64,000 bases of DNA. Origin: Candidatus Bathyarchaeia archaeon (lineage in GTDB: Archaea; Thermoproteota; Bathyarchaeia; Bathyarchaeales; Bathycorpusculaceae). The DNA is taken from positions 1-64,000 of the forward strand of contig JBEKKX010000005.1 in NCBI GenBank assembly GCA_050010515.1. Reading direction: 5' to 3'. Positions 3,154-22,689 of this stretch are shown here, one piece after another. A model generated the notes under the pieces. That model was given only the letters and a program-made list of their open reading frames with translations, was not told the origin of the DNA and ran no database searches. A program made the translations under genes and the position numbers. How positions within the stretch are numbered: position 1 is the first letter of the stretch; each line of letters begins with the position of its first letter.

Positions 3154-3490
3154 GGAAACATAGTTTAGTTTTTCCGAGTGGCAACTGGAGGGGAATTGAA
3201 CCCTCGCCAAGATGCAGACATCGTCCGCACAAACCCTTTTTTTCTTTCCGTACGCTCTCCCCTGCGCTGATATGTCGTCTCAGCACTCGCCTTTTAAAGC
3301 GCTTTAGCCCTAGCTTCTCCATGCCCGAATTGTCCAGACCTTGCGATGCTTGCGGCAAAACGGTTCGGCGGCTTGACAAAAGACTAGACTATAAAGAAAA
3401 AACTGGAGAGATAGGTTTTTATGTTCCGCTTAAATCTCTAAGGGTCACCAACATATATTAAATGGCAAAAGAATGGATTGATGGACCAAA

Positions 3491-5542: not shown

Positions 5543-6748
5543 TTGAAGCCGTTCAGCTTCGTTCATGCTTCAGACTTGCATTTAGGCTACGCACAGTACG
5601 GTCTTGAAGCTAGAAGGCAAGACTTCGACAACGCATTCAAAGAAGTAGTGGATAAAACAATCGAGTTAAAACCTGACTTTATGATTATCGCGGGTGATTT
5701 GTTTCATCAAGCGAGACCATCAAACGTTACCCTGGAGAACACTATTCGAAGTTTTAAGCGGCTAAAAGACGCCAACATCCCAGTTTTAACGGTTGACGGC
5801 TCACACGATTCCGCGCCAAACACGGTAACGGGTACAATCCTATACCCATTGGACAGCGCAGGATTAATCCACCATTTGCCAAGGCACAGCGGCGCATGCT
5901 GGCGCAAACCAGACTGCTGCTACGTCTATGGCATACCAAACTTTCACAATAAGCATAAGACTCAAGAGGCTCTCCCAAAGTTCATGGCGGAAAACTCTCC
6001 AACGCCCGATAGCAAGGTCTGCAACATTTTCGTTTTCCACGCCGCGGTGGATTTGCCAAGCGTTAAGCCACCATACATTGAAGCTGAAGTTTCGCCCGAG
6101 CAATTGCCAAGCGGCTTTGACTATTATGCTGCTGGTCACGTGCATGAACGGTACCTGGACAAGTTCAAAACAGGCGTTCTAGCATATAGTGGCTGTACTG
6201 AAACAGCCGATTACAGAGAAGCGAAGTACCAGAAAGGCTTCTTTCATGTTAAAGTAAACGAGAAAGGTGAAGTAAACCCTGAGTTCAATGAAATTACGTC
6301 AAATCGTAAATTCGTTGTTTTTGAGCAAGAATTCACTGGTATGGCATCAGGGAAAATAACTGAATTAGCCACTCAACTTGTAAAAGACGCTGATTCGGAA
6401 GGAGCAATTATAATTCCTGTTTTGAAAGGCACTTTACCAGCTGAAGCAAGCCGAGCAGAAATCGACATAGGCAAAATTCGAAGTGCTGGCGAGAAAGCTT
6501 TGCTTGTTCACCCAATCGTGCTGCTAAAAGAAACCGCTGTTTCCGACGAAATTGTACGGTCCATTTTTGAGAGTGAATTTAAAGATTTGAAGACCAAAGC
6601 TTTTGAGTATTTTCTGCAGATTTTCTCCGAACGTTATAGCCGCGAGGAAGCTGACAAAATTGCACGTTCAGCACTCAGCCTTATAGAACCCTTAACAAGA
6701 AAACAAGACGAGAAAGTCAAGCAAACCATTGAGGAGCTGGCAAAATGA
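5543..6748 (+). CDS. mre11: DNA double-strand break repair nuclease Mre11
   Basis: SDLHLG, AGDLFH, GSHD, AGHVH phosphoesterase motifs; adjacent to rad50. Confidence 0.93.
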   Translation: MKPFSFVHASDLHLGYAQYGLEARRQDFDNAFKEVVDKTIELKPDFMIIAGDLFHQARPSNVTLENTIRSFKRLKDANIPVLTVDGSHDSAPNTVTGTILYPLDSAGLIHHLPRHSGACWRKPDCCYVYGIPNFHNKHKTQEALPKFMAENSPTPDSKVCNIFVFHAAVDLPSVKPPYIEAEVSPEQLPSGFDYYAAGHVHERYLDKFKTGVLAYSGCTETADYREAKYQKGFFHVKVNEKGEVNPEFNEITSNRKFVVFEQEFTGMASGKITELATQLVKDADSEGAIIIPVLKGTLPAEASRAEIDIGKIRSAGEKALLVHPIVLLKETAVSDEIVRSIFESEFKDLKTKAFEYFLQIFSERYSREEADKIARSALSLIEPLTRKQDEKVKQTIEELAK

Positions 6749-8832
6749 AAATTGAAATAGTTCAGCTAGAAAATATCCGCAGCCACATTAAATCCACCGT
6801 GCCATTTACACGGGGCTTTAACTGTCTTGTTGGTGGTTTAGGCTGCGGAAAATCCAGCGTCTTATACGCGGTTGACTTCGCCTTGTTCGGTGACTCAATA
6901 GGCAGAAGTTTTGAATATCTGCTGCGTGAGGGCGCGGATTCAGGGAAGGTCACTGTACAGTTCACACAAAGCGGAAGCACCTACAAGCTTATACGCGGAT
7001 TAAAAAGAAAAGGCAAAAGCATTACTCAAAATTTTGAAGAACTCAAACTCTATGAGGATGAGAAGCTTGTTGCCAGCATGAAAACCGACGCCATCACTGA
7101 ACAGTTTAAAGCTATCACAGGTTTAGAAAAGGACCTTTACCGAGAAATAGTTTGGTTTAGGCAGGAACACCTCAAAGAGCTACTTGATGCTGCGCCGCGT
7201 GACAGGCAAAGACGTTTGGATGAATTGTTCGGTTTGTCCGACTATGAGGTTGCTTGGAGTAATATTGCTCAGTATCAGCGGGACTATGAGACTGAAAAGC
7301 GGGTTTACGAGAAGGACCCAGATGTTACTGGGTTAGAAAAGCTAAGTAACGAATACAATAGGGCAAGTGAAGAATACGCGCTTTTAGAAATGGATCTTGA
7401 GAACTCAACGCAAAAGTTAACGGTTGCCAAGAAAGCGTTGGATGGCGCAGATTCAAAACTGAAAAGGCTAGAAGAGAAAAGGCAAGTTATTGAAGATCTT
7501 AAGCGAAAAGAAGCAAGACTCCATGCCGATATTGTTAATATGGCTAACACTTTGGCTTCGCTAACTCAGCGTATTGAAGGCAAAAAAACAATCTTGGATA
7601 ATTTGCGTCAGCGCCAAAGCTCAATTGATGCTCAAGGTAAAGTGTGCTTAGGTAAACTTGAGCAAGCAGGTTTGTCAACTAATCAGCCTGTTGAAGCACT
7701 GCATTCTTCTTTGGCAGCGTTTGATGATAAAATCAGCAGTTTAAAGGCTGATCAAGAAGCGACATCGAGGAACCTGCAAACAGACAAGAAAAGAATTGTT
7801 TCTTTATCACAAGAAAGTAAATGCCCGCTTTGCGTGCAGCCATTAGAGGGCGAATACAAAAGCAATCTGCTTTCAAGAATCCAACAAGAAAATTTTGAAC
7901 GGGAAAAAACCATTAATCAATTAAAAATTGAAATTGATAACCTCCAGAAAACAAGAGCTGTAGCTTCTGAAGCTTACTCGATCTTGCAAACTTGTATGAC
8001 AAGAGCTGAAGAGCTAAAAAACCGCTTAAGTGAAGAAGAAAATAACCTTAATAATCTATCAAGCGAATTTGAGGAGAAGCAGAAGCTTGAAGCTGATTTG
8101 CGTTTGCAGCTTGAGCAGGTTCAGTTTGAAATCAGCAGATTTGATTTATCAGAGCTTGATGCTGCCCGAGCGCAGCGTGAACAGGCTTTTCGACAATATT
8201 ACATGTTAGACTCCGATTTGTGCACTAAAGAAAACCGCAAAAAAGATCTTTTTAAACGCTTAGATGAAATTAAAGAGCGGATTAATCTTGCGCAGGAAAA
8301 GCTTGAGCGCATGGAGAAAATCCGTAGAACCGTTGAAGTTTTAGGTGCCATTCGTGACGCTTACCGCAGTATTCAGCCTAAGCTTCGAAGTGAGTTTGTG
8401 AAGGTTTTGCGCAATTATATTCAGCAAGTGCTTGATGGCTTAGTCGGCGGAGAAGGACCCATGCTTAACGTTGTTATTGATGAAACTTACACGCCTTACG
8501 TGAAAAGCGAAATGGGCGTTGACCGTGAAGTCTCTAACCTTTCGGGGGGAGAACGTACGCTTTTGGCTTTTGCTTACCGCTTAGGTTTAGGACAGTTGAT
8601 TATGCAGTCGCGGACTGGTCACGGCTTAAGTATACTTGTGCTTGATGAACCCACCGAGAACTTAGGAAGCGAAGATGGCAGCATAGAACGGTTAGCTGAA
8701 GCCATAAGTCGATTTAAAGCAATTGAACAAATCATTGCGGTTACGCATAGTGAAGCATTTGCTGGTAAAGCTGAGCACGTAGTTATTTTGGAAAAAGAGG
8801 CTGGAGTTAGCAAAATCTCAATTGAACGATAA
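6745..8832 (+). CDS. rad50: Rad50 SMC-family ATPase
   Basis: Walker A GGLGCGKSS, coiled coils, CPLC zinc hook, LSGGE, LDEPT. Confidence 0.93.
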   Translation: MKIEIVQLENIRSHIKSTVPFTRGFNCLVGGLGCGKSSVLYAVDFALFGDSIGRSFEYLLREGADSGKVTVQFTQSGSTYKLIRGLKRKGKSITQNFEELKLYEDEKLVASMKTDAITEQFKAITGLEKDLYREIVWFRQEHLKELLDAAPRDRQRRLDELFGLSDYEVAWSNIAQYQRDYETEKRVYEKDPDVTGLEKLSNEYNRASEEYALLEMDLENSTQKLTVAKKALDGADSKLKRLEEKRQVIEDLKRKEARLHADIVNMANTLASLTQRIEGKKTILDNLRQRQSSIDAQGKVCLGKLEQAGLSTNQPVEALHSSLAAFDDKISSLKADQEATSRNLQTDKKRIVSLSQESKCPLCVQPLEGEYKSNLLSRIQQENFEREKTINQLKIEIDNLQKTRAVASEAYSILQTCMTRAEELKNRLSEEENNLNNLSSEFEEKQKLEADLRLQLEQVQFEISRFDLSELDAARAQREQAFRQYYMLDSDLCTKENRKKDLFKRLDEIKERINLAQEKLERMEKIRRTVEVLGAIRDAYRSIQPKLRSEFVKVLRNYIQQVLDGLVGGEGPMLNVVIDETYTPYVKSEMGVDREVSNLSGGERTLLAFAYRLGLGQLIMQSRTGHGLSILVLDEPTENLGSEDGSIERLAEAISRFKAIEQIIAVTHSEAFAGKAEHVVILEKEAGVSKISIER

Positions 8833-8980
8833 AATGCTATAGTGCACGAAAAAATTCTATGCCTCCATTTAAGGGTAAGCGACTTTGGAAAAGCCATCTT
8901 TGCAAATTTAGTCCTTTTAAGCGAGAGAGGGCTGGCAGAAGTTATTTTAATCCCAGCAAGACGTCTTTTCCTTGAGTGAA

Positions 8981-9919
8981 CTAAGGTTTGGCGATTGTGA
9001 GTTGTATCGGCGTGGTCTGTATTCCGTACGTTGGACCAGTTTGGCCAACTATGTAGTAGGTTCCTGGCGAGACTGAGTCTCCTTCAACTTGGACGTTGAA
9101 ATTGCATGTCTGCAACCAAGTGAAGTTGGCCGAAAAGCTCTCTCCAGCGGAAAGCGGCACGATGGCTATGAATTGAGCTATGGCTCTGAAATTTGACCAC
9201 TGGTACACCACATTGTTTGTGCCGTTGTAAACTTGAAAATCAAAATCCAATCCTGTGTGCTCAAAGTTTATTGTCTGATTGCTGATGTTGGTGATGGTCA
9301 AAGTTAGGTTGACAGGTTCGCCTAAACTGTAAGAGGTTTTGTCGAGGGTCATGGTGAGTTCGAGATTGCCATTTCCTCCCGACGCCACGGACTGATTGGA
9401 GTATTGGATTGTCACAGGAGTAACGAAATTGAACGTGGATCCATTTTGCAGAGTGCCTGTGATCTCCATCGGGTAGGGTTGGTTTGTTTCAAATCCGGCG
9501 CCAATCAGTGTGTCTGTCTGAGATGCGTCTTGATTGGGCAAAAGCGGGTTGCTTGAAGAAACGCCGCCGAAAACGTACGTGTAGTTGTGCCCAGATAAGA
9601 ACAATACCGCTTGAAGGCTAACCACTGGGTTGGTTGCGTTGTTTTGCAGGATGACTTCAATTGTCGGTCCACCCGGGTTATAGGGTTGAAGAATACTGAC
9701 TGAAACTACGGTTAGAGCGCCTGCATTTACAGGAGCGGACGTTGCAGCCGGCGTAGGAGCCGGCGTAGGAGCTGGCGATGTGCTCGGGGTCGGCGTAGGG
9801 GTCAAAGGGTTACTATTCTTTGGCAGTTCTTTCTGTGCAGCATAGTAGGCGCCGACTGCTCCAACTAAAAGTATGACCAATAACAAGACAACCTGTGCCT
9901 TCGCCACGGCTCTTTCCAA
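8981..9919 (-). CDS. Membrane-anchored protein with PT linker and BsuPI-like Ig domain
   Basis: N-terminal TM, PTPTP linker, DFDFQV...YQWS...LSAGESF...W. Confidence 0.6.
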   Translation of the reverse strand: MERAVAKAQVVLLLVILLVGAVGAYYAAQKELPKNSNPLTPTPTPSTSPAPTPAPTPAATSAPVNAGALTVVSVSILQPYNPGGPTIEVILQNNATNPVVSLQAVLFLSGHNYTYVFGGVSSSNPLLPNQDASQTDTLIGAGFETNQPYPMEITGTLQNGSTFNFVTPVTIQYSNQSVASGGNGNLELTMTLDKTSYSLGEPVNLTLTITNISNQTINFEHTGLDFDFQVYNGTNNVVYQWSNFRAIAQFIAIVPLSAGESFSANFTWLQTCNFNVQVEGDSVSPGTYYIVGQTGPTYGIQTTPIQLTIAKP

Positions 9920-10027
9920 TAGACTCTTCCCTCCTATACTGTCTATAGACGCAGCGAGAATTAAAAATCAACTGGTCTGCAGGCAACTAGCATGGCGCGT
10001 AGTCGTATATGGATATTCTTGGAGTAA

Positions 10028-10381
10028 TTAACATGTCACGTGGATTAATGCGACCATTTTTCTATGCTCTTGGTTTATTTTTTCGGTTATTTCTTGTGTT
10101 GGCAGAATAACGGTTTCATATTTTTTCAGGATCAAAATAGCTTCCGGTGTAATGGGAAGCGCTGCTTGATGACCGGTTCCGATGTAGACGACATCGGGCT
10201 TTTCTTCCGAAAGAAAATCTAGTTCACGTTCTGAAAGAGGAGTATGACCATAGAGGGGCTTCAAATCCTTGGATTTTTTCTTCTTCCTCGTCGTAACTGT
10301 CCCATCAGCATGAAGGATAATGTCCTTTTCATATTTGACCCCATGCACTTCCACCCAGCCAAACTCGGATTTCACTGTCAC
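10028..10381 (-). CDS. Mth938-like domain protein
   Basis: FGWVEV.G..YEKDI, YGHTPL, IGTG, C-terminal LIHVTC. Confidence 0.8.
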   Translation of the reverse strand: MTVKSEFGWVEVHGVKYEKDIILHADGTVTTRKKKKSKDLKPLYGHTPLSERELDFLSEEKPDVVYIGTGHQAALPITPEAILILKKYETVILPTQEITEKINQEHRKMVALIHVTC

Positions 10382-10700
10382 AAACCCATGTTCCTATAGA
10401 TTGCGCCATATTTTTGGTTATCGTCAGAACAAATCTTGGCGCGCATATTGTCCTTTGTCTAAAAAATGGCTCAGACTGGACTTCCCTCCAGTAACACAAT
10501 AAGGGTTTTTCGTAAACTCCCTAGCATAAGCGGTATAACCCTAATCTGACGCCGCCTCCATTGTAAGGAGCAGAAAGTGATGAGACATGGACGCTAAATC
10601 GTCTGCACAAAACAACATGGTATTGTCCGCGGTTGGCTAGAGGCGCACAATCGCCGATATGAAAGCGCTCGACTATTTTGATGAAAGCATAGAAGTTGTG

Positions 10701-10747
10701 GAACCCACGCGGTCTTTCGACCACAGACTTAGCAAAAGAAATGGCGC
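10701..10747 (-). repeat. tRNA-Ser fragment (anticodon loop to T-arm) plus a separate GCGCCA end
   Basis: 10701-10734 matches the tRNA-Ser gene with one mismatch; tggcgc at 10742-10747 abuts the stop of the 10747-11226 gene. Confidence 0.85.
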
Positions 10748-11226
10748 TAAAAAGGCTCAGTTAAGCGCCTCTTCAATATTTTCACTCGTTCGCTGGATTG
10801 CTTTAAATCATTAAGCAACTCTTCAAAACGTCTAATCTTGAAATTTATTATTTCATGAAGTTCGTTTCCAGTCGTTGGCAAGTTGTAGTTTGTGAGGCTT
10901 ACGTTTGCTTTTCTTGCCGATTCTATCATCCACTCCTCAAGTCTAGGGTAGAGAACTATAAGCCGGTTATGCCCTTGGTTATGGTGCAAGATTTCAATTC
11001 CGTCGCTATCCGAGTAGCTAAGTACTTGAAAACGTTGTAAGTAAAAAGTAGGTTGAATGCTTGAAGGGTCTTTGTCAATAAGCCCCACAGAATCTTTTTG
11101 TTTTAGTAATTTCCGCAGTAGTTCATATTTGCCTTGATGATGCATAATCCTTCTTTGTGGCACTGAAGTTAGCGAGCTAACCAACGCAACATCTGGATCA
11201 CACTCAACCCTATACATGCTCTTCAA
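10747..11226 (-). CDS. TOPRIM-like partner (DUF4435/DUF4276/DUF3226 type) of the AAA ATPase
   Basis: VECDPD, GLIDKDP (DxD), PRLEEW; 4-bp overlap with the ATPase gene. Confidence 0.6.
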   Translation of the reverse strand: MKSMYRVECDPDVALVSSLTSVPQRRIMHHQGKYELLRKLLKQKDSVGLIDKDPSSIQPTFYLQRFQVLSYSDSDGIEILHHNQGHNRLIVLYPRLEEWMIESARKANVSLTNYNLPTTGNELHEIINFKIRRFEELLNDLKQSSERVKILKRRLTEPF

Positions 11227-12251
11227 TCCCGATGAACGGCGTCCGATACGGCTTCATCTTGGTTGGCCAGTTTTTCGAGATTCAAGAACACGTCTGATCC
11301 CATTTCAAGTATTTCATTCTTCTTTTCGTCGCTCAACGGAACCAGTTTCGTTTGGTAATCCTTCAATTCGGTGACGAAGATGGCTATGTCATCTTTGTTG
11401 GCCTTTTCTAAAATTGAGGTAAGGAGGTACGGGTTGTGTGTGGCTATGAAATATTGATTGTTTTGTTCGCTGAGGGCTATTCGTTCGGCGAGGTATTTTG
11501 TGTAGTAGGGGAAAGCATGGGCTTCAGGTTCTTCGAATGTAATCACTGAGTCTCGGTTAGATTGGATTGCAGTCATGTAAAAGACCAGCCTCTGAAGGGT
11601 TTCTGAAGAAATTGAATATGGAAAAGAAACTAATACTTCCTCAAATTCTTTAACTACGTCAATCCTGCCCTCTTCGGGTCTCAGGTTTATTCTATACCCA
11701 AACTTTTCAAAAATATCCTTAACTATCTGCTTACTATGCTTATTCGTCAGTATTATTGACAACAAATTATTTCCACAAGGTGGCTGAAGAAATTCTGATC
11801 GTGGGTTTGCGAATTGCTTTAAGTGTTGAAATCTGTAAAATTTGAAATATTTCAACCTTTTTTCTTCAACAAATGACATCACTTGAGTATAATTAGCAGA
11901 GAAAACTTCCCTCCGGCTGGCACTGGCAGGATCAGCTTGAAAATAAGTTCCAAAGAATCCGCCATCCCTAAATTCAATCATGAGATTTCCAAAACCAAAG
12001 TCGACAGTTATTGGCTGATCCAACGAATGATCATAGAAAAAATCTCTCATATTTTCAAAGCGCACAAAATCAGCGAGATTATTATGATTTCCATGTCCCA
12101 TGAAGGAAGCTAAGCCAATTGCTTCAAGCAAATTTGATTTCCCACTATTAGGCTGTCCGATAAACAAGTTAATTTTTCTGCACTCAACGTTAACTTCCCT
12201 TATGGATTTGAAATTCTTAATGCTGAGCTTACGAATTTGCATTTTAACCAC
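11223..12251 (-). CDS. AAA_15/AAA_21 ABC-type ATPase (PARIS/AbiE-like defence module)
   Basis: IKNFKSI, GQPNSGKSNLLEA, EEPEAH, ATHNPY. Confidence 0.8.
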   Translation of the reverse strand: MVKMQIRKLSIKNFKSIREVNVECRKINLFIGQPNSGKSNLLEAIGLASFMGHGNHNNLADFVRFENMRDFFYDHSLDQPITVDFGFGNLMIEFRDGGFFGTYFQADPASASRREVFSANYTQVMSFVEEKRLKYFKFYRFQHLKQFANPRSEFLQPPCGNNLLSIILTNKHSKQIVKDIFEKFGYRINLRPEEGRIDVVKEFEEVLVSFPYSISSETLQRLVFYMTAIQSNRDSVITFEEPEAHAFPYYTKYLAERIALSEQNNQYFIATHNPYLLTSILEKANKDDIAIFVTELKDYQTKLVPLSDEKKNEILEMGSDVFLNLEKLANQDEAVSDAVHRD

Positions 12252-12338
12252 AGTCCACTAATAGGACAGTTGTTTTTATTTGTTCTTCGGTGCAATAGAG
12301 CAAATTAAAATCCTGAACACGGCAATAACATGTTAAAA

Positions 12339-12601
12339 TGGCGTGGGTTGTGGGATTTGAACCCACGCGGTCCTTGTTTTAAGCGGATAGATGCCCGCAC
12401 TTTTGACGTAGTTTTAATCTCAATAGTGTACCCCCTCTTCCCGCCTTTGGGGAGCTTGGGCGCGCACAAGCCTCGGGGGTAGCCAAAAGCTAAATATTAA
12501 ATTTTATTAATCAACGGCAAGGGGCAAGGTGCATCCAGTGTTGAAAACTCAGTGGCCTTTTCGAGCACAGACTTTGCAGGTCTGCCCCCTACTAGGCTAG
12601 G
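12339..12601 (-). pseudogene. Degenerate tRNA-Ser copy split by a ~180-bp structured insertion
   Basis: 3' part with CCA at 12339-12370; D-arm/anticodon/variable-arm part at 12554-12601; no 5' acceptor strand. Confidence 0.75.
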
Positions 12602-12655
12602 CTAAATGTTACCATTACAATATTGGATTAAAATGAAATATTTATATGGTTTGTA

Positions 12656-13522
12656 ATGGTAATAAGTTTTATGCGAACGATCAAAAGAAGAAAAGGCAAA
12701 GCAGAGTATTTCTATCTGCAGCATTCCTTCCGAAAAGACGGAAAAGTCGTTACAAAAGAACTCTATCTTGGAAAAAAAATCCCCGACAACATTGAAGAAA
12801 TAAAAGCTAAACTCATGCATGAATCCCATAAGGCATTGGTCGAAAAACTAGAAAAGATAAGAAGCAATTTTCAGAAAGAATGGAAAAAAGTTCCCCAGTC
12901 AGCCAAAGAAAAAGACCTGCAGGAGATAGCCATAGCCTTTACCTATAACACCAACGCCATTGAAGGATCCGCCATAACGCTTGAGGAAACCAGGTTAATA
13001 CTAGAAGACAAAGTAGCTCCAAACAAGCCAATCCGAGACATACGGGAAACTGAATCTCACGCAGCCACATTCCTGCAAATGCTGCGAACAAAAGAAAAAA
13101 TTTCAGACAAGCTCCTGTTGAAATGGCATGAAGAAATCTTCAGAGAAACAAAACCTGACATCGCAGGAACCTTTAGAAATTATCCGGTCAGAGTTGGTTC
13201 TTACTTAGCGCCAGATTGGCAGAACGTCGAAAATCTAATGAAACAACTTATAGCATTCATAAACGAATCAAACCTTAATTCCGTTGAACTTGCGGCTAGA
13301 GCTCACTATATGTTCGAGAAAATTCATCCCTTCGGCGACGGCAACGGCAGAATTGGCAGATTCTTAATGAATTACATCTTATGGGAAAGAGGTTATCCTA
13401 TGCTCATAATAGAATACAAGAAAAGAAAATCCTACTACAAAGCCCTGCAGCGACCCGAAGAAGGCTTCGTAAACTACCTTATCAGAAGATACTTGTCGGT
13501 GCATAAACAGCACTTCCTATAA
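12656..13522 (+). CDS. Fic family protein
   Basis: HPFGDGNGRIGR motif; TYNTNAIEG. Confidence 0.92.
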   Translation: MVISFMRTIKRRKGKAEYFYLQHSFRKDGKVVTKELYLGKKIPDNIEEIKAKLMHESHKALVEKLEKIRSNFQKEWKKVPQSAKEKDLQEIAIAFTYNTNAIEGSAITLEETRLILEDKVAPNKPIRDIRETESHAATFLQMLRTKEKISDKLLLKWHEEIFRETKPDIAGTFRNYPVRVGSYLAPDWQNVENLMKQLIAFINESNLNSVELAARAHYMFEKIHPFGDGNGRIGRFLMNYILWERGYPMLIIEYKKRKSYYKALQRPEEGFVNYLIRRYLSVHKQHFL

Positions 13523-13540
13523 AAAAATGCTAATTATTAT

Positions 13541-13597
13541 TGGCGCGGGATGTGGGATTTGAACCCACGCGGCCTTTCGACCACAGACTTAGCAGGC
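13541..13597 (-). repeat. tRNA-Ser 3' half with CCA (att-like copy)
   Basis: 13543-13597 is identical to 16225-16279 and is followed by encoded CA. Confidence 0.93.
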
Positions 13598-14002
13598 TTA
13601 CGGTAGTCCCAGAAAAGCTGCTTCCCTAAAGTGGCTGTCAAAAGTGAATGCTTCAGAAATCGAAAGTTCACGCATCAAAACAAAGCTCGTGCAGTCCGTA
13701 AAACTCCAAGATTTATGGTTTGATTTCTGAAAAATGTTGAGAGCTTTTTCGAAAAGATTTTCATCTATCCATAAAATATGTACACTACTGCTTTTTTTGA
13801 TTTTATCCATGAACGTTGTTGCAGACGTTAAATCTCTTCTTGACCGCAGAAGAGTAAGAGTTTCATCTAGCACATAATCGGTGGTTATGGAGATTCCGTA
13901 CTTTCCACTGGCAATCAGAGAAAGGAATTTACAGGCTTTTTCGTGGTTTACATCATCTTCTACTTCTACGGCATACCAAGCGCTGGTATCAACGAAGATC
14001 AA
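13598..14002 (-). CDS. vapC: PIN-domain (VapC) toxin
   Basis: IFVDTSAW, VLDETLT, SFTDCTS, FTFDSHF. Confidence 0.92.
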   Translation of the reverse strand: MIFVDTSAWYAVEVEDDVNHEKACKFLSLIASGKYGISITTDYVLDETLTLLRSRRDLTSATTFMDKIKKSSSVHILWIDENLFEKALNIFQKSNHKSWSFTDCTSFVLMRELSISEAFTFDSHFREAAFLGLP

Positions 14003-14235
14003 GTGTTTTCCCCGTAAAGGAACTTATCGTGTTCCTCTGAACCTGCGTCTTTTTTTCCTGTTTTCTTGGAACTGGGACCACATGTAAAGATGGGATCGTT
14101 TGGGTTAACGTTGCCTTGCACGGTAGCTCTAATTGCTTGGCGAAGAACCGCTTTAATGCTCATTGAATTCTTTTTAGCATATTCTTCCAACAGCTTATGT
14201 TCAGCTTCGCTTAATGTTGTCTGTACAACTTTCAT
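13999..14235 (-). CDS. RHH/CopG antitoxin (VapB)
   Basis: KVVQTTLSE...; C-terminal SEEHDKFLYG typical of VapB; overlaps vapC. Confidence 0.8.
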   Translation of the reverse strand: MKVVQTTLSEAEHKLLEEYAKKNSMSIKAVLRQAIRATVQGNVNPNDPIFTCGPSSKKTGKKDAGSEEHDKFLYGENT

Positions 14236-14300
14236 CTTACATCATGCATGTAACATGCTAAATGAAAGATTTAAGATTTTCTTTAAAGAGGTTACAAATA

Positions 14301-14329
14301 TGGCGCGGGATGTTAGGTTTACATTCACG
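14301..14329 (-). repeat. Degenerate tRNA-Ser T-arm/acceptor/CCA copy
   Basis: cgtgaatgtaaacctaacatcccgcgcca versus tRNA cgtgggttcaaatcccacatcccgcgc. Confidence 0.7.
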
Positions 14330-14390
14330 TTTAAATTTCACACGAAAAAGTTGGAAATATTAGGAAGCAATGGTGTTCGCCTGATATTTT

Positions 14391-15116
14391 TTATGGAAGC
14401 ATTTTTTCCCTTCTAATTAGCCTGCTTGACAAAATCAACAACACAATTGACAGCCCACCAGCAACCACAGCAATAGACAAGTCAACTAGGAAGGCGATAA
14501 AAAATGGTAAAAACGAAATATAAAACGTGGGAATGATAACCACGGCGCCGATCGTCAAAGCAAGAGGACTATTGGCGCCCACTCTCTGCTTTTGTAATGA
14601 ACTGAAAGCCATCATAGAAACTGTAGCTAAAGAAACGGCAGAGAAACCAAGCGCGGCGGTGAGAGCTAACAGCACTAGAGCAAAAAGTGTTGTCCCTGCA
14701 ATAACGCTTGAGACGACATTGGCGGCGAATTCGGCAATAAAAAGAGTTAGTGCAAGGAATAACGCGGTTTTTAAGTAGCTTTTAAAGATGTCGCTTTGAT
14801 TCCAGCCGAGTGAAAGTAGATATTCCAAAACTCCGTTGTTTTTGTCATAGACGTAAAGCAGAATAATAGATGTGGTGAATATAAGAATTCCAAGAGCCAT
14901 AAACGGAACAGCAATAAGAAAAAGTGCTTCAGGCGCACCTTTAGCAAGAAAGGTAATGGCGTCTGCTATGAAGGTTCCAAAGGAAGCAAAGAAAATCCCC
15001 ATTCCAGAATATATTTTGCTCAAATTGAGGCTTCGTTTAGCGAAAATCAATGTATTATTTGGCAACTTGCTGTGGCTCCTTTTGTGTTTTTTCCACTTTT
15101 TCATTTGGTGACTCAA
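14391..15116 (-). CDS. ABC-2 type exporter permease
   Basis: About 6 TM segments, DKNNGVLEYLLS motif; true start uncertain. Confidence 0.75.
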   Translation of the reverse strand: MSHQMKKWKKHKRSHSKLPNNTLIFAKRSLNLSKIYSGMGIFFASFGTFIADAITFLAKGAPEALFLIAVPFMALGILIFTTSIILLYVYDKNNGVLEYLLSLGWNQSDIFKSYLKTALFLALTLFIAEFAANVVSSVIAGTTLFALVLLALTAALGFSAVSLATVSMMAFSSLQKQRVGANSPLALTIGAVVIIPTFYISFLPFFIAFLVDLSIAVVAGGLSIVLLILSSRLIRREKMLP

Positions 15117-15948
15117 AAAGCTCTTGCAACGGATTATCTAGCTGACGCATTTCAGTTACCAAAACACCACTTTCAACTAACTTTTTCAACGCGAGCCCTG
15201 CTTCCTCGGGGCTAGATACGTTCAAAACAAAATAGTCACCCTCTTGATGGGCATCTACAATTCTTGATATGTCTGTTGAGGCTTTAATGCCTACTCGGTA
15301 CTGTTTGGGTTTAATGTTTGAGATTTTATCAAACAATGTAACTGAACCATTTTTGATTAAAATCAGGTAAGTTCCAATGTCAGTTGCTTCGTAGAGGTTA
15401 TGGGAAGAGTAAAGAATCATTTTGTCTTTACTTAATTTTAAGATGATATCTCGAATTTCTTTTGAGATTGCTGGGTCTAAATTCGCGGTGGGTTCGTCCA
15501 GTAAGTACAACTCGCTTTCGTGAAGAAACACCTTTGCGATTGCAGCTCTCTTTTTTTGTCCCTGTGAGAGGTCAGAAAATCTCTTATTTTTCAGTTGGCC
15601 AAGGTCCAGCAGATCAATCACGTCGTCTGGGTCTCCGCCTTCTATGTCAGAGTAAAACTTTAGTGCGTTATACACGGTCATTTCTTCGGGCATTGCGTTG
15701 TACTGCGAGAGATAGCTCATTCTTGTTCTCGTCTTGCTTGATGTGGTTGTGTTTTGGTCGTCGAGAAGGATTTTACCGCTGTATGGCTCTAGTATGCCGG
15801 CGATTGTTCTAAACAAAGTTGTTTTGCCCGCGCCGTTTGGCCCTAAAACAACGTATATTGAGGGCTCTTGCAGTTTAAAGGTGATATTATGCAAGACGGC
15901 TTGCTTGTTGTAGCCGGAAGTTACATTGTTCAATTCCAAAGCATGCAC
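15055..15948 (-). CDS. ABC transporter ATP-binding protein
   Basis: GPNGAGKTT, LSQGQ, LLDEPT, SSH. Confidence 0.92.
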   Translation of the reverse strand: MHALELNNVTSGYNKQAVLHNITFKLQEPSIYVVLGPNGAGKTTLFRTIAGILEPYSGKILLDDQNTTTSSKTRTRMSYLSQYNAMPEEMTVYNALKFYSDIEGGDPDDVIDLLDLGQLKNKRFSDLSQGQKKRAAIAKVFLHESELYLLDEPTANLDPAISKEIRDIILKLSKDKMILYSSHNLYEATDIGTYLILIKNGSVTLFDKISNIKPKQYRVGIKASTDISRIVDAHQEGDYFVLNVSSPEEAGLALKKLVESGVLVTEMRQLDNPLQELFESPNEKVEKTQKEPQQVAK

Positions 15949-16225
15949 AGTAATTTACCGCTATTGTCTTTATATTCTAAATACTGAGAAGCATGAAACT
16001 AATTAGTGTTGTTCAACGTCAAACATTGATATAACGGCAACATTTGCGGTTGAAAAAGTCTCGCCTTATGAACAAATGATTTCAATGTTCTGTGGCATGT
16101 GCAAACTAAGCGCTAAGCCTTTTTATGCGATAAAGTTAGAGACATTTGTTAATTTTTTAGCGTTTATTGCACCCTATTTTTATAAATAAGCAACAAACAA
16201 GCTCCATTTGGCAAAAGGAGTAAAG

Positions 16226-16309
16226 CGCGGGATGTGGGATTTGAACCCACGCGGCCTTTCGACCACAGACTTAGCAGGCCTGCCCCCTACCAGGCTAGGG
16301 CAATCCCGC
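16226..16309 (-). tRNA. tRNA-Ser(GCT), CCA not encoded
   Basis: GCGGGAT/ATCCCGC acceptor stem, CAGGC-CTGCTAA-GTCTG anticodon arm, long variable arm, GTGGG-TTCAAAT-CCCAC T-arm, G discriminator. Confidence 0.95.
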
Positions 16310-16665
16310 ACAGGCAACAATTATAATTTTGGAACTGCCAAAGTCTATGTTATATTGTAGAGTGTGGCGCTCGGATATTTTTGCTTTCTGTATCCTGAAA
16401 ACTGCAAATCACACCATTTAAAGCATTAACAGGATGACGCTCTCTGATGCTGGGCTCGCTCACCCTGGGGGAGGGGTATACTTTTTAACTGTTAAAACAC
16501 TAAACAAAAAGAGCTGCCCTTCTTTTCAGGAGCCTTTTCTTCAACAGAAACAGTATCAATCAACCTATAACAAAGTCTCTTTTTTACTGTGATTTTGAAG
16601 TTTAAGTGTCAATAACGCTTTTTATTAGCGCCGAACAATCAATCTGCATTAAAGGAGGAAGAGAA

Positions 16666-18579
16666 GTGACTGCGCCTACGCTTAGCGACACAATGAAACA
16701 TACATGCGACAATCTTAGGCAGGGCGCAACCAAACAAGTCACCGATTACGAGCAGCGATTCTCAATCCTGAAAGACGCTTATGATGGTTTGCTTGTGAAC
16801 CTGATCAAGTCAGGCTTCAACCCGAAGGAGGCTTTGGAAACGGCTAAAGAGTTCTTCGGTTCTGACAAGGTTCGTTTTGCGGGTATTGACGGCACAATGT
16901 ATTCGAGGCCGCTGTTTGATATGGTTATTTTTTTCGGCGGCGCTTACGCAGCCACGGGCACCATAAAATTCATAGAAACAGCGGAGCCTCAAGTCGAATA
17001 TGACGCTAAAACTATTCAGCAGAACATAGGCATATCCAGCGTTGTTCCAATCTACGTAAACGAAATCACAGATGTTGACCACTCGTTTGCAGCTCAAGAC
17101 CAGCCAGGCGAGGTTGACCCGTCAAAGCCAGCTATAGATGAAGAAATAGCCAACAACTCGCTAATAGCTAACGCGATTATGACTTTTTCAGAGTACTATT
17201 TAGCCTACAAGCTTGCTGTTGACCCAGAACAGAACATTAGGATACTTTTAATGGATAGAAGCTTATCCACGGAACGCGCAAGCCTCCTGTACGAAACTAG
17301 GAAAACGGATTTTTGGGATGCGAAAAGCACGCTCGTCGGCTATGTTAGCGATGGAAGGCAGTTTGATAGGAACGATTTAGCCATAGCACGCCATCACGTT
17401 TGGAATAAGGCTTTGGGTTTGCCTGCTCCACGGGCAGATTACCTGCGTCACGCTATAACTTGCCTAGCTAAAGAAAACAAAACTTTAACCCAAATGCAAA
17501 TCTGCGAAGCCTTAGGGATAACGGATGATAAACGTAAAAGAAGGGTCGAAAAAGCCTTATCAAGCTTAGTTAAAAAACGCATCCTAACAGAAGTCGAGGG
17601 CATCTACACTTTAAACCAGCAGTACATTGATAATTGGGAACGCACAAAAACTTTAACCATCGAAGTTGGCGACCAACTCTTTTCAACAAAAACCCCCACA
17701 CCAGAAACACCCAGCAGCATGAAAATAATCAAAAACGGCAAAGAGCACTGGCTAACCACCCTGGATATTGCCTTTTTGACGCTTTTCACTTTGCAAATGC
17801 TCATGGAGGAGTGTTGGAGAAAATGCATCCTTCTCGTAGGCATCACTAAGGACACCTCCGCCAGGGATTTCAAGCGCCAACTTGTTCCAATAATGCAAAA
17901 CGAAGGCTTACTGAAAGCATCAGTGGAAAATGAGGCGTTGGCTGCGCTTCCAAACACTGACCGCATGATTCTTCAATCAGCAAGCGTTTTTAACCCAGAG
18001 AAACTGGTGCCGCCTTGGAGCCTGATAGAGTATGATTCAGCTTTTAGAACCATGAAGCCTGATGTGAACAGAGGGCAAGGCTATGTTTCGGGTCTTATTA
18101 AGAATAAGATTGGTTTAGAGAAGGCTTTTTTGAAGACTTATGTGCAGCTTAGCCAAGCAAAATCTGACCTGCTACTGAGGAGTAACGTGTTATTGATTGA
18201 CCGTTTAGCTTACGCTGAGTTTGACCTAAAGCCTGAGTGCTGTTTGGCTTTGTGCAATGAGATGAGTGATGGCGCAAGGGAACCAATAGAAGTTCTGTTA
18301 TACAAGGACAAGTCTGTACCCAACAAGATGCAGAATATGGTTATGAGCATGCTTGTATCCATGGCGCCGTCGAATATCCCAGAGGCTTTTGGTCACAACA
18401 AAGCGTTGTTTGCGGCTGACAAAATTGCCAAGTGGAATTACAGCCAATTCAAATGCGTTGCAGACTCCACAGCTAACTGGATTTTGAATAACCATAAATT
18501 GCGAAAGTTCATATTTTACATGAGCACTTTCCGTGAGAGGCGAGCAAGTATTGAACAAGCAAGAAGAGAAAACCGTTAA
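16666..18579 (+). CDS. nurA: NurA-family nuclease with internal winged-helix insertion
   Basis: FAGIDGT, LLMDRSL, VGITKD, GHNKALFAAD; GTG start after GGAGG; overlaps herA. Confidence 0.78.
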   Translation: MTAPTLSDTMKHTCDNLRQGATKQVTDYEQRFSILKDAYDGLLVNLIKSGFNPKEALETAKEFFGSDKVRFAGIDGTMYSRPLFDMVIFFGGAYAATGTIKFIETAEPQVEYDAKTIQQNIGISSVVPIYVNEITDVDHSFAAQDQPGEVDPSKPAIDEEIANNSLIANAIMTFSEYYLAYKLAVDPEQNIRILLMDRSLSTERASLLYETRKTDFWDAKSTLVGYVSDGRQFDRNDLAIARHHVWNKALGLPAPRADYLRHAITCLAKENKTLTQMQICEALGITDDKRKRRVEKALSSLVKKRILTEVEGIYTLNQQYIDNWERTKTLTIEVGDQLFSTKTPTPETPSSMKIIKNGKEHWLTTLDIAFLTLFTLQMLMEECWRKCILLVGITKDTSARDFKRQLVPIMQNEGLLKASVENEALAALPNTDRMILQSASVFNPEKLVPPWSLIEYDSAFRTMKPDVNRGQGYVSGLIKNKIGLEKAFLKTYVQLSQAKSDLLLRSNVLLIDRLAYAEFDLKPECCLALCNEMSDGAREPIEVLLYKDKSVPNKMQNMVMSMLVSMAPSNIPEAFGHNKALFAADKIAKWNYSQFKCVADSTANWILNNHKLRKFIFYMSTFRERRASIEQARRENR

Positions 18580-20431
18580 CAAAGAATGCTTCACAGACTT
18601 TGAAGACAAATTTCACGCAAGGTTAGCGGCAGTTATGCCCCGTTACGTTGGCGGCGACGGCGGCGACTCAAAAGTTACTGGCACAAGCGCACGCTACCAA
18701 TGCCGAGTCAAAATAGAGTACCAAAAAGACTTGATGGGGCTGCTTGAAGAAGGCATGTTGTTAGCGGTTAAGAATTTTAAGCCTGCAATCAGTGGCGTCG
18801 AGCGGTATACGCTTATGGAGATTAGCCGTGTTTGGCCTGAACACTTTGGTCTTCGCGGATTAAGTGATCATGGTTATTATCCGATGCAGTTTGAAATAAT
18901 CGAGCAGTCGGAAGCAGATTGGCAGACCGATGACAAGTCAACGATGATGATTCAAATTGACGCCATTCCCATCAACTATGACTTAATCGTTAAGGATGAT
19001 TGCACGTTTGAGTTTGTTAAGGGCTTCTCATACCCCATAGTTGGCAGTCCCATTCTTATTTTGAACAGTGAAATGATTAACCGCATGTACAACCAGAAAA
19101 TCGCCGCTCAATTGGGTATTGACACAGCAAAATCGGTTGAAGATGCCCGTGTGGACCCAAGGCTTGGCACAATTAAAATGTTCGAAGCAGCCAAAACGAA
19201 AATCCCCATATACGTTGACTTCGAAAAATTAATTCGATACCACTTCGGAGTTTTCGCCTTCACTGGCGGCGGCAAAAGCAACTTAATGTCCAACGTTCTA
19301 AGGCGAATAATGCTTCATATGAACGAGAAGAAAATCGTGATTTTCGACATCAGCTGCGAGTATGCTTTTCTCTTGCTTGACGTGCTTGCTGACCCAGCTG
19401 TGAAGGCTAAGCTGGTTCTTGAGCACAGAATCGATTCTTTGGACCAATTCTACAACTCAATTGTTAAGCCACGTGAATACGAGAGTGACTTGCGCACGAA
19501 AGCTGGTTTGCAGACAATTATGGATCAAGACAAGTTGTCTTATTATACGAAGCCTAAGCAGAAAATTCCAACTTATGGCCAGTTTATGGAAGAACTTGAT
19601 GATCAACGGAAGGATTCGATTGGCAGACCGCATTACATTAACGCTATTGATGCGATTCATGATGCGGTTCGTCAATGGGTTGAGAAGCAGGGCTTAAGTG
19701 AAAATCAGGAAGTCAGTGAAGACTTCATTGTCCATATTGACGAGGTAGCGCGAAATGCCATGGAAACCTTCAAGGTAAATGACAAAGCTGGACTATACGC
19801 TTGGGCAACAACCCGAAGCACAATACTGGACCTCTTCAAGAAGCGCCAGCAAAACACCGAGAAAGCAGCGGCTGGATTAACGGTTGAAGGCATAAGACAA
19901 CTGCTCGAAGACAAAGACACCAACCTCGTAGTAATCTCAATCAGCGACCCCTTCACCATCAAAGAACTCGCCATAGCTTTGACCCAAGACTTGCTTGTAC
20001 GCAGAAAACGCCGCTTCACAGTAAAACCCTACATTCTACTAGTCTTCGACGAGGCGCAGGAGTTCATCAGCAGCAAAGAAGGTGGGATAGACGGCAAATG
20101 CTCCGCACATGTAGAAACGCTGCTCCGCCAAGGACGCAAATACGGTTTAGGCGTCTGCATAGCCACTCAACGCATCGCTTACCTAAACACTAACGCGCTT
20201 CAGCAACTGCACACCTACTTCGTCGGCACCCTACCACGACCATACGATAGGGCACTGGTGAGCGAGACATTCATGATAGACAAGGGCATCTTGGAGAAGA
20301 CGCTGGAGTTTGCGCCAGGCGAATGGCTCCTATCAAGCTACATTGCAACGGGAATGGAGAACGTGCCCATATTCATTAAAGCAGACAACGCAGAGAAGGA
20401 AATAGAACGCTATCTGAAAGGCAAATCATAG
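18533..20431 (+). CDS. herA: HerA/FtsK-family ATPase (DUF87)
   Basis: HFGVFAFTGGGKS, IFDISCEY, FDEAQEF, RQGRKYGLG..ATQR. Confidence 0.88.
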   Translation: MRGEQVLNKQEEKTVNKECFTDFEDKFHARLAAVMPRYVGGDGGDSKVTGTSARYQCRVKIEYQKDLMGLLEEGMLLAVKNFKPAISGVERYTLMEISRVWPEHFGLRGLSDHGYYPMQFEIIEQSEADWQTDDKSTMMIQIDAIPINYDLIVKDDCTFEFVKGFSYPIVGSPILILNSEMINRMYNQKIAAQLGIDTAKSVEDARVDPRLGTIKMFEAAKTKIPIYVDFEKLIRYHFGVFAFTGGGKSNLMSNVLRRIMLHMNEKKIVIFDISCEYAFLLLDVLADPAVKAKLVLEHRIDSLDQFYNSIVKPREYESDLRTKAGLQTIMDQDKLSYYTKPKQKIPTYGQFMEELDDQRKDSIGRPHYINAIDAIHDAVRQWVEKQGLSENQEVSEDFIVHIDEVARNAMETFKVNDKAGLYAWATTRSTILDLFKKRQQNTEKAAAGLTVEGIRQLLEDKDTNLVVISISDPFTIKELAIALTQDLLVRRKRRFTVKPYILLVFDEAQEFISSKEGGIDGKCSAHVETLLRQGRKYGLGVCIATQRIAYLNTNALQQLHTYFVGTLPRPYDRALVSETFMIDKGILEKTLEFAPGEWLLSSYIATGMENVPIFIKADNAEKEIERYLKGKS

Positions 20432-22257: not shown

Positions 22258-22689
22258 ATGACCACGAAGTTATCCAAATCTGACGTTTCATTCATCCAGC
22301 AACTACCTGTGTGCCGACTTGCAACAGTAACTGAGGATTGTGAGCCTGTGGTGAGGCCTGTTTGGCCCGTTTTTGACGGCGTATTTATCTATATAGCGTC
22401 TGACCCTGAAACTCCCAAGCTGGAGCACATAGAAGGAAACCCTGAAGTTTCATTGGTCTTTGATGATTATGACAGAAACAACTGGTCTAACGTCAAAGGC
22501 GTCCGTGTTCAGGGAGAAGCAACCGTCCTTTGGAGGGGCAAAGAATACGTTTATGCGCATGATCTTCTCAAAGAAAAGTATCCTGAGTACCAAACTGAGG
22601 AAGGCGGTTGGAAAGAAGGCGACATACCAATAATCAAGATAACGCCAACATCTTTCACGAAATGGACATCTGGCGAATGGACAAAATAA
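22258..22689 (+). CDS. Pyridoxamine 5'-phosphate oxidase-like (F420/FMN-binding) protein
   Basis: CRLATV...PVW...KL..I..NPEVSLVFD...GVRVQG. Confidence 0.85.
   Translation: MTTKLSKSDVSFIQQLPVCRLATVTEDCEPVVRPVWPVFDGVFIYIASDPETPKLEHIEGNPEVSLVFDDYDRNNWSNVKGVRVQGEATVLWRGKEYVYAHDLLKEKYPEYQTEEGGWKEGDIPIIKITPTSFTKWTSGEWTK

Follow-up and report, generated by a model that had tools for sequence, protein, structure and literature searches.

In archaea, genes for transfer RNAs (tRNAs) serve as integration sites which are re-used by elements with tyrosine recombinases, such that tandem arrays are formed (Krupovic et al. 2019, PMC6563490). Integrated elements can also decay to cis-mobilizable elements (CIMEs), which are flanked by attachment (att) sites and have lost their recombinase, as reviewed for accretion–mobilization in streptococci (PMC5704250), and Prochlorococcus carries Tycheposon islands, which lie at tRNA genes and are studded with partial tRNA copies (Hackl et al., bioRxiv 10.1101/2020.12.28.424599). 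Here, we describe a related arrangement in a Candidatus Bathyarchaeia archaeon (GenBank assembly GCA_050010515.1), of which the first 64,000 nucleotides (nt) of contig JBEKKX010000005.1 were analysed and are referred to as the window. On its minus strand, an intact tRNA-Ser(GCT) gene is followed by a ladder in which copies of the 3' part of this tRNA alternate with modules of one or two genes, and none of these modules encodes an integrase. We think it rather likely that this array was built by repeated site-specific insertion of non-autonomous cassettes, which share att arms and rely on a recombinase whose gene lies elsewhere, deletions being added by homologous recombination.

With the archaeal tandem elements the locus shares integration at the 3' part of a tRNA gene, direct repeats, re-use of the site and a cargo of toxin–antitoxin and defence genes; the elements described there, however, are delimited together with their integrases, whereas the units found here comprise 0.2–1.9 kb without a recombinase, and a single junction type is common to many unrelated cargos and to several target tRNAs (PMC6563490). 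CIMEs are similar in having kept attL and attR and having lost the genes for integration and transfer, in standing in tandem at a tRNA 3' end and in being movable by a helper recombinase, and our array likewise possesses attL and attR but no recombination or transfer genes. As presented in the review, however, CIMEs are decay products of integrative and conjugative or integrative and mobilizable elements that are moved by helper conjugation, whereas the units found here belong to an archaeon, are much smaller and contain no conjugation genes (PMC5704250). Tycheposons resemble the locus by their scattered partial tRNA copies, by newcomers displacing older elements from the tRNA and by their niche or defence cargo, yet as described they possess a recombinase of the tyrosine or large serine type and, usually, genes for replication, of which none occur here or near most junctions of the genus (bioRxiv 10.1101/2020.12.28.424599). 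The tandem islands at ssrA of Dehalococcoides also share integration at the 3' end of a small stable RNA gene (PMC3146451). Finally, the pdif or Xer modules of Acinetobacter plasmids and chromosomes are small and site-bounded, often contain toxin–antitoxin genes and have their recombinase outside of the module; their sites, as described, are dif-like inverted XerC/XerD sites served by host Xer, in contrast to the tRNA-derived direct repeats seen here (PMC12907356).

Text searches of the literature yielded no paper on integrase-less cassette arrays in archaea or Bathyarchaeia, with the proviso that the supplementary tables of PMC6563490 may list some, and the papers found on mobile elements of Bathyarchaeia are mostly concerned with viruses and proviruses, no title or start of an abstract describing such arrays. 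Site re-use, decay to CIMEs and partial-tRNA islands were already known; new here are the scale of the phenomenon within one genus and a shared sequence arm that is fused to the ends of several tRNAs.

The tRNA-Ser ladder and its junctions

The tRNA-Ser(GCT) gene that anchors the array (16225..16309, minus strand; detected by ARAGORN; Rfam RF00005, 54.9 bits), and which would represent attB or attL, is the sole known RNA family found by an Rfam search of the ladder. Of the ladder proposed in the initial annotation, five significant copies of the 3' part downstream of this gene could be confirmed, each oriented like the tRNA, together with one eroded end at 10437. An intact tRNA accompanied by same-orientation copies of its 3' part is the direct-repeat arrangement of tRNA-targeting integrated elements. 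These copies, named J1 to J5 and all located on the minus strand, bound an ABC pair, vapBC, fic, a fragment of about 0.2 kb and a split pair of an OLD-type ATPase and a TOPRIM protein.

J1 (14291..14352) forms the distal end of the ABC cassette and belongs to a type that we call the 'P-arm' junction, i.e. it consists of a left arm of about 35 nt, followed by the tRNA acceptor 3' strand and CCA. Its tRNA-like part (14301–14329) is 76% identical to the tRNA, and the junction matches a profile built from the relatives with an E value of 1.8e-19 (nhmmer). Judged by its sequence, J1 is not a decayed tRNA end but a member of a conserved junction family of about 47 nt. J2 (13541..13597) is an exact copy of tRNA nt 31–85 (55/55 identical at 13543–13597), followed by CA, whereas J3 (12546..12601) is an old and diverged long copy of tRNA nt 11–66 (82% identity over 56 nt), which closes the fic cassette; fic cassettes of relatives end in long copies as well. 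J4 (12339..12375) extends from the T-arm to CCA with a variant acceptor strand (31/35 identical; nhmmer E 0.0079). J3 and J4 had been regarded as one split copy spanning 12339–12601, but are in fact two separate copies with unrelated DNA between them. J5 (10701..10734) contains tRNA nt 34–67 (33/34 identical), is cut off in the T-loop and closes the cassette of ATPase and TOPRIM protein; in a relative, in which the corresponding unit adjoins the tRNA, the copy starts at the same nt 34.

Two weak stubs had been suspected at 10437 and 9993, neither of which is detected by the junction profile. Comparison with three relatives nevertheless reinstates the former: at 10437..10444 (minus strand), the distal end of the array, probably lies the eroded 3' end of the oldest copy. 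Thus, homology to the closest relative resumes at 10425, where this relative has a T-arm remnant (CAAATCCCACA), and in two relatives fic is directly followed by the 10425-side stretch and the gene for a DUF498/Mth938-like protein. For the stub at 9993 there is no such support, since relatives show no conserved junction at this place. The DUF498 gene (10028..10381, minus strand; PF04430; cluster c11), which is a conserved flank in 9 loci, is part of the chromosome and no cassette.

Directly 3' of the live tRNA-Ser(GCT) gene the sequence is CTT and not CCA, whereas the copies in the ladder do carry CCA. This difference, which had been pointed out in the initial annotation, is real; in the 60 relatives studied, CCA is encoded by 57 of the tRNA-Ser(GCT) genes and CTT by 2 (one gene is cut by a contig end), and CTT versions of junctions are also found inside the arrays of relatives. 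The lack of CCA in the live gene is therefore a minority allele and no clue to the mechanism. The tRNA is directly followed by a type A trailer (16191..16224, minus strand), which differs by 2 mismatches in 23 positions from a recurrent post-junction consensus and which in relatives is located 3' of junctions and of tRNA-Leu(GAG). In our reading, the ABC cassette begins with this trailer, which would be its right (P') arm.

The J1 junction family, arrays of the genus and population variants

The J1 pattern occurs at 78 sites in 46 of the 120 genomes of the genus, with a reversed control giving none, and at 75 metagenome loci; IMG/VR yielded 0 matches and thus no viral or plasmid donor. Among public contigs, 33 of 37 loci with the motif are assigned to Candidatus Bathyarchaeota or Bathyarchaeia and 1 to an 'uncultured archaeon'. 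Three loci (L176, L189 and L191) stand in metagenome-assembled genomes (MAGs) with bacterial names—Acidoferrum, Limnocylindrales and Deferrimicrobium—and probably represent archaeal contigs that were mis-binned. An ammonia-oxidizing archaeon, which had been considered as the source of the window, was dismissed, as neither amoA (in a search that gave no match in control genomes either) nor mcrA was found. An alignment of 76 complete, non-identical J1 instances shows that conservation sets in abruptly about 18 nt 5' of the tRNA-like part, with unrelated cargo upstream and one of two related trailers following CCA. The left arm, of which there are two main linked alleles, resembles the region from the variable arm to the T-arm of a tRNA with both stems destroyed.

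When the left arm was searched for with the acceptor strand left free, it was found in 45 of the 120 genomes and at 93 sites among the matches listed (control, 0). Sorting of these 93 acceptor ends by eye assigned about 64 to tRNA-Ser(GCT) and about 23 to a Leu type (CCTCCGCA, CCTCTGCA, CCCCTGCA and near variants), with 2 TCCCGGCG, 1 CCCGCCCG and 3 other ends remaining. For 20 non-Ser sites the surroundings were retrieved; a gene for tRNA-Leu(GAG), Leu(CAG) or Leu(TAG) in the same orientation lies upstream in 10 of them, one of which shows a ladder with three junctions, and in a complete genome tRNA-Leu(GAG) is followed by a type-A trailer, just as tRNA-Ser is in the window. To judge from these sequences, at least three different tRNA genes, and probably five, have an acceptor end to which this left arm is fused. 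Independent decay of different tRNAs is excluded as the origin of an arm that they all share. The left arm thus reads as element DNA joined to host DNA at the boundary between T-stem and acceptor, and the sharing of this arm bears the signature of site-specific recombination by a family of elements with common att arms. Altogether, more than 150 sites belong to this family; their cargo is diverse, and an integrase hardly ever lies close by.

The tRNA-Ser(GCT) loci of related MAGs, whose comparison the initial annotation had named as a check, were analysed for 60 relatives and the window (61 loci, 17 kb per locus), and the same ladder architecture proved to be widespread. At least one downstream copy is present in 43 of the 61 loci, at least two are found in 22, at least three in 10 and at least four in 5. 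The junction profile follows the tRNA strand in 114 of 115 matches in these loci, and genes in the arrays are of mixed orientation (67 plus versus 39 minus). The 82 intervals between junctions have a median of 1.9 kb, with 47 of them below 2 kb; integrated elements of archaea reportedly span 2.6–140 kb.

Units are discrete and have been reshuffled. The Fic unit occupies 1004–1030 bp in 5 arrays, in which it stands at rank 1, 2 or 3 from the tRNA, and 1183–2018 bp in 4 more; the ABC unit measures 1912–1921 bp in 4 genomes, at rank 1 or 2. The unit of ATPase and TOPRIM protein has 1658 bp at rank 5 here and again 1658 bp at rank 1 in one relative, in which fic adjoins the DUF498 gene without an ATPase unit in between, and thus the order of units relative to the tRNA differs between genomes. 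For none of the four gene-bearing units was a larger, integrase-bearing version present in the relatives' loci of 17 kb each. A Pfam search of the window's open reading frames (ORFs) and of 212 proteins of relatives (80 cluster representatives and 132 array ORFs) revealed no primase-type domain of a replication module; the 132 array ORFs include only one tyrosine recombinase, and the single DEAD/MrfA-type helicase stands alone.

Elsewhere in the genome, on contig C26, a second and perfect pair of J1-type junctions (1892–1961 and 3161–3231), 1.27 kb apart, bounds a DUF2807 gene. This cassette is 91% identical to one adjoining tRNA-Ser in another species, with the neighbouring core gene being 85% identical. 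The pair lies far from any assembled tRNA-Ser and represents either a second array or a displaced old array end.

Two relatives show variation at the tRNA itself. In the first (G015, locus L074), the T-stem of the resident tRNA-Ser has G50 and A64, and a copy 1.37 kb downstream has T50 and C64, a pattern which reads as a reciprocal exchange with a crossover between positions 50 and 64. The sole detected gene for tRNA-Ser(GCT) in this genome has apparently been left with a mispaired T-stem (G50–A64) by recombination. The second relative (G116) has two tRNA-Ser(GCT) loci, L056 on contig C11 and L057 on C5, which have the same flanks and differ by a 13.3-kb insert without an integrase exactly at the tRNA end; these may be two strains that were binned together, and amount to a natural pair of before and after.

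Variation is also seen in the populations themselves. The stretch occurs in sequencing runs of peat and wetland metagenomes. Among the contigs of other such runs, one joins 13542 to 16225, such that the tRNA is directly followed by fic, with 55 nt shared at the joint, and in two runs contigs jump from 13494/13507 to 14298/14301 and are thus without vapBC and one junction. Occupied and empty states therefore coexist at the repeats, with either vapBC or ABC plus vapBC missing and the joints located at junctions; peat populations differ by whole modules. A low-depth joint of 10469–13457 and a joint going back 559, both from one run, were not used; their sides comprise 33–36 nt and neither corresponds to the size of a cassette circle.

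Absence of integrases and origin of the array

That none of the modules encodes an integrase was an early observation that held up in all searches. Neither PF00589 nor PF16795 has a match anywhere on the contig, Pfam analysis of all ORFs is in agreement, and a tblastn comparison of the genome's 7 integrase-like ORFs with 8801–16700 gave a best E value of 0.22, so there is no integrase fragment in this region. The array thus lacks the integrase of its own that is characteristic of tRNA-targeting elements with tyrosine recombinases. At the same tRNA, tyrosine integrases occur in only 3 of the 60 relatives; one is located directly after the tRNA, one has the same position and is frameshifted, and the third abuts a 24-nt exact attR. 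At the 75 J1 loci from metagenomes, a distance of 2 kb around the junction contains no integrase domain, and non-Ser junction loci have any integrase-like match within about 8 kb in only 3 of 20 cases (two fragments and one gene 6 kb off). Moreover, conserved array proteins of unknown identity (clusters c13, c21, c32, c10, c7 and c18), which were considered as hidden recombinases, have no recombinase-like match in Pfam (E<=1) or NCBIfam.

The initial annotation had left the choice between minimal cassettes using the tRNA end in trans and eroded tandem islands. Site-specific integration targeted to the tRNA is well supported by the data given above, and we favour the cassettes because units of conserved length stand at different ranks, populations differ by whole modules and an att-like junction is shared. 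The region at 10.4–16.3 kb would accordingly be an accretion array, in which small units were inserted serially, either at the tRNA-Ser(GCT) 3' end itself or at older copies of this end. Every insertion would have restored the tRNA, with a copy of its 3' part left behind beyond the inserted unit. The units would be non-autonomous, i.e. possess att arms but not carry the recombinase. At least the ABC cassette would belong to a genus-wide family, whose att site would consist of a left arm of about 35–47 nt, a core equivalent to the acceptor 3' strand of the target and a trailer of about 25–45 nt. For insertion, excision and re-insertion we infer a tyrosine-type recombinase that acts in trans and is encoded by a helper element or the chromosome, and homologous recombination between the direct repeats would add deletions.

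On this basis, a plausible order of events can be proposed. In the ancestral state the tRNA would have adjoined the DUF498 gene, and fic may have been the first to enter, together with an almost full-length tRNA copy. In this lineage, the unit of ATPase and TOPRIM protein and some fragments would then have entered the old distal copy of fic. ABC (type-A trailer, cargo and left arm) and vapBC would have been added on the tRNA side, with ABC in the tRNA-proximal position; the vapBC cassette lies between ABC and fic and is still polymorphic in the population.

More tentatively, these arrays could represent a dedicated, integron-like cassette system that operates on tRNA genes. It would employ an att site of about 100 nt, composed of left arm, a core of 8–13 nt equal to the tRNA acceptor end, and trailer, as well as a recombinase encoded outside of the array, and several tRNAs sharing one T-arm would be used, with the target set by the core alone, so that cassettes could be re-aimed. 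With integrons the arrays share units of one to two genes with a conserved end site, order and content that vary among close relatives, toxin–antitoxin cassettes and, if the favoured reading is correct, a recombinase outside of the cassettes. In contrast to integrons, there is no intI at the array, the anchor is a tRNA gene instead of attI, and gene orientation is mixed. When folded as single-stranded DNA, neither J1 (z -0.39 and +0.67 for the two strands) nor J2 (z -0.05) forms a hairpin like that of attC. Since the junctions do not fold into hairpins and intI is absent, the array is no integron, though it would work in a similar way.

Several observations weigh against serial insertion of mobile cassettes. 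A cognate recombinase was not found. Integrase genes are numerous and diverse in the genus, and therefore integrases encoded in cis may have existed in the past. No circular or excised form was seen in the assembled contigs, which cannot show rare molecules. The Fic cassettes diverge about like core genes (76–88% nucleotide identity), and thus vertical inheritance together with insertions around them explains most of the differences in Fic rank; the equal length of the ABC cassettes could likewise be inherited, the four carriers being related genomes. Homologues of vapBC behind tRNA-Pro genes are bounded by tRNA-Pro copies at 3 of 8 sites examined, as would be expected if addiction modules persist as the last remaining ends of larger elements. 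Finally, there is plain erosion in the array itself: J3 is old, J5 is truncated, only a stub remains at 10437, a gene fragment lies at 12379–12442, and two fragments are non-coding.

As a candidate for a recombinase acting in trans, an orphan integrase on contig C22 was considered and set aside, its distribution over the 120 genomes being uninformative. Its family is large and diverse, a single genome containing as many as 12 copies at E<=1e-20, and orthologues with at least 60% identity exist in only 3 genomes; the distribution test was made for this integrase alone.

The strongest competitor to serial cassette insertion, which we consider doubtful but serious, is that the modules are the surviving ends of larger integrase-bearing elements, i.e. 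eroded tandem islands, from which the integrases were deleted and in which no small unit ever moved alone. Toxin–antitoxin and defence genes would persist under such erosion, their loss being selected against. The tRNA-Pro-bounded vapBC homologues, the core-like divergence of the Fic cassettes and the truncated copies and fragments of the array all fit this scenario, as do the elements with integrases at the same tRNA in 3 of 60 relatives, including the frameshifted one, and both tandem arrays and decay to integrase-less elements are documented in the sources cited above (PMC6563490, PMC5704250, bioRxiv 10.1101/2020.12.28.424599). It is difficult to reconcile, however, with the absence of any integrase fragment from 8801–16700, with cargo-only cassettes which recur at equal length with both conserved arms, and with a position of the ATPase and TOPRIM unit relative to fic that differs between two genomes. 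Moreover, with more than 150 P-arm junctions that almost all lack an integrase nearby, many precise and independent deletions would have been needed.

Homologous recombination alone is an unlikely explanation. In this case, the repeats would have arisen once or a few times, and all further variation would stem from RadA-dependent unequal crossing-over and allelic replacement with DNA from related strains. Ample homology for such events is indeed offered by the conserved flanks and by junction units, which are about 100 nt long, a deletion variant in a peat run has its joint at the exact repeat of 55 nt, and CCA and CTT versions of junctions are spread through the arrays as if by gene conversion. 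What homologous recombination leaves unexplained, however, is the same left arm and trailer on unrelated cargo, the precise fusion of this arm to the acceptor strands of different tRNAs and the reciprocal T-loop exchange with its short homology.

That the ladder is an artefact of mis-joining at the tRNA repeat during assembly of the MAG, as the initial annotation had cautioned, is extremely improbable: although two identical 55-nt repeats are present and contigs assembled with short words break there, the flanks of every junction are unique, J5, J4 and J3 are spanned without a difference by a contig of 2293 nt whose sequencing run had not been flagged as possible source, metagenome contigs share the ABC-to-vapBC junction and one of them the spacing of tRNA, J2 and J3, complete and near-complete relatives exhibit the same architecture, and a single segment between two repeats allows no other linear order.

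Cargo, neighbouring features and biological meaning

The tRNA-proximal cassette contains the gene for an ABC-type ATPase of 297 amino acids (aa) (15055..15948, minus strand; PF00005, E 8.9e-31; cluster c4), followed by that of its membrane partner (14391..15116, minus strand), a 241-aa ORF which co-occurs with c4 in 4 arrays and has no match in Pfam, NCBIfam or PADLOC. The second cassette codes for a VapC-type PIN toxin of 134 aa (13598..14002, minus strand; PF01850, E 2e-14), whose stop codon abuts J2, and for a vapB-like antitoxin of 78 aa (13999..14235, minus strand), which overlaps the start of the PIN gene by 4 nt. A PIN toxin gene after a small overlapping ORF is the arrangement of VapBC systems, with the match of the antitoxin to its family (PF19807, E 1.4e-4) being below the family cut-off. 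In a relative (locus L193, G012:C1:8216-10399) two vapBC pairs stand in tandem, 1539 bp apart and each 75% identical to vapBC of the window, with no tRNA gene or junction within 4 kb.

The fic gene (12656..13522, plus strand) encodes a 288-aa protein with a Fic domain (PF02661, E 9.7e-24; PADLOC PDC-S04, SoFic). The Fic motif has the form HxFx(D/E)GNGRxxR, and HPFGDGNGRIGR is read in the sequence, such that domain and motif together place the protein in the Fic/Doc family. Fic is always antisense to the tRNA, as 11 Fic genes between junctions in 10 of the 61 arrays are all minus.

The last cassette encodes an ABC ATPase of the OLD/Gabija/PARIS type (AAA_15/AAA_21) with 342 aa (11223..12251, minus strand; PF13175, E 1e-17; PF13304), which in PADLOC matches ATPase-Toprim_I-B (E 7.9e-18), NsnB, HEC-01A, GajA, Old, AbiLi and AriA. 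Its 159-aa partner (10747..11226, minus strand) has no match to the profiles of PADLOC, NCBIfam or Pfam. An AlphaFold2 model of this protein (pLDDT 86.7) is best aligned by VIA-align with the TOPRIM regions of OLD nucleases (6p74_A, Z 8.7, root-mean-square deviation 2.8 over 117 residues), with further matches to 6nk8_B (Z 7.5) and GajA (Z 6.1), all of these Z values being moderate; Foldseek found nothing in the PDB at E<=0.001. TOPRIM domains carry a glutamate and a DxD motif, and E8 and D51-x-D53 are invariant in 11 sequences of the partner. The early designation of this pair as AAA plus TOPRIM thus holds, in the form of a split OLD-type system. The emphasis which the initial annotation placed on toxin and defence genes is appropriate for this genome but does not apply in general, since the array cargo of relatives consists mostly of transport, redox and stress genes, besides which there are some ParDE, Fic and insertion sequence elements.

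Between J3 and J4 lies the start of a gene (promoter and first codons; 12379..12442, minus strand), a 64-nt fragment that is 87–93% identical (blastn) to six other contigs of the genome, i.e. C8 (30102–30164), C18 (20544–20601), C23, C43, C25 and C6. This motif, conserved over about 40–64 nt in at least 7 genomic places, spans the start codon of a peptide beginning with MKTTSKVRVS, and only the copy on C8 continues into an ORF, which has 113 aa. Loose ends in the read layout at 12379–12387 were considered as alternative neighbours and rejected, as they come from the paralogous repeats on other contigs.

Upstream of the tRNA, at 16606–20431 on the plus strand, genes for a protein with a NurA domain (657 aa) and for an ATPase resembling HerA (632 aa; PADLOC HerA, E 3.9e-39) are located between tRNA-Ser and a PNPOx-like gene (about 22271–22688), which in most relatives adjoins tRNA-Ser directly. 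The NurA/HerA pair looks like an accessory insertion 5' of the tRNA, as it is present there in only 8 of the 61 loci. On the other side of the array, a Rad50-like gene is found at 6745–8832, and a BsuPI-domain gene (8981–9919) contains, at 9744–9799, a 14-nt unit that occurs three times at distances of 12 and 30 nt and probably encodes a short peptide repeat.

Single downstream copies of the 3' part also accompany five other tRNA genes of this genome, on contigs C1, C7, C13, C21 and C45. The copy at tRNA-Arg(GCG), 44 nt long and 5.5 kb downstream, is overlapped by the 5' end of an intact SSV-type integrase gene (PF16795, E 3.6e-32). Direct copies of 38 nt at 0.6 kb, 29 nt at 8 kb and 46 nt at 1.4 kb follow tRNA-Leu(GAG), tRNA-Val(GAC) and tRNA-Asn, respectively, and 19.5 kb downstream of tRNA-Arg(CCT) there is a direct copy of 25 nt and then a type-A trailer.

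Bathyarchaeia are abundant, uncultured archaea of sediments and peat, whose gene exchange is poorly known. This locus and more than 150 related sites show that much strain-level gene turnover at certain tRNAs proceeds in units of one or two genes, which have recombination sites and lack a recombinase. Should these units be products of decay, the locus would still tell which genes withstand erosion, namely toxin–antitoxin and defence pairs. If a trans-acting enzyme truly exists, however, this would be an archaeal counterpart of the gene shuffling by integrons or Xer modules, and a site that is easily found by its sequence would then help to map accessory and defence genes in metagenomes, and might possibly serve for programmable integration.

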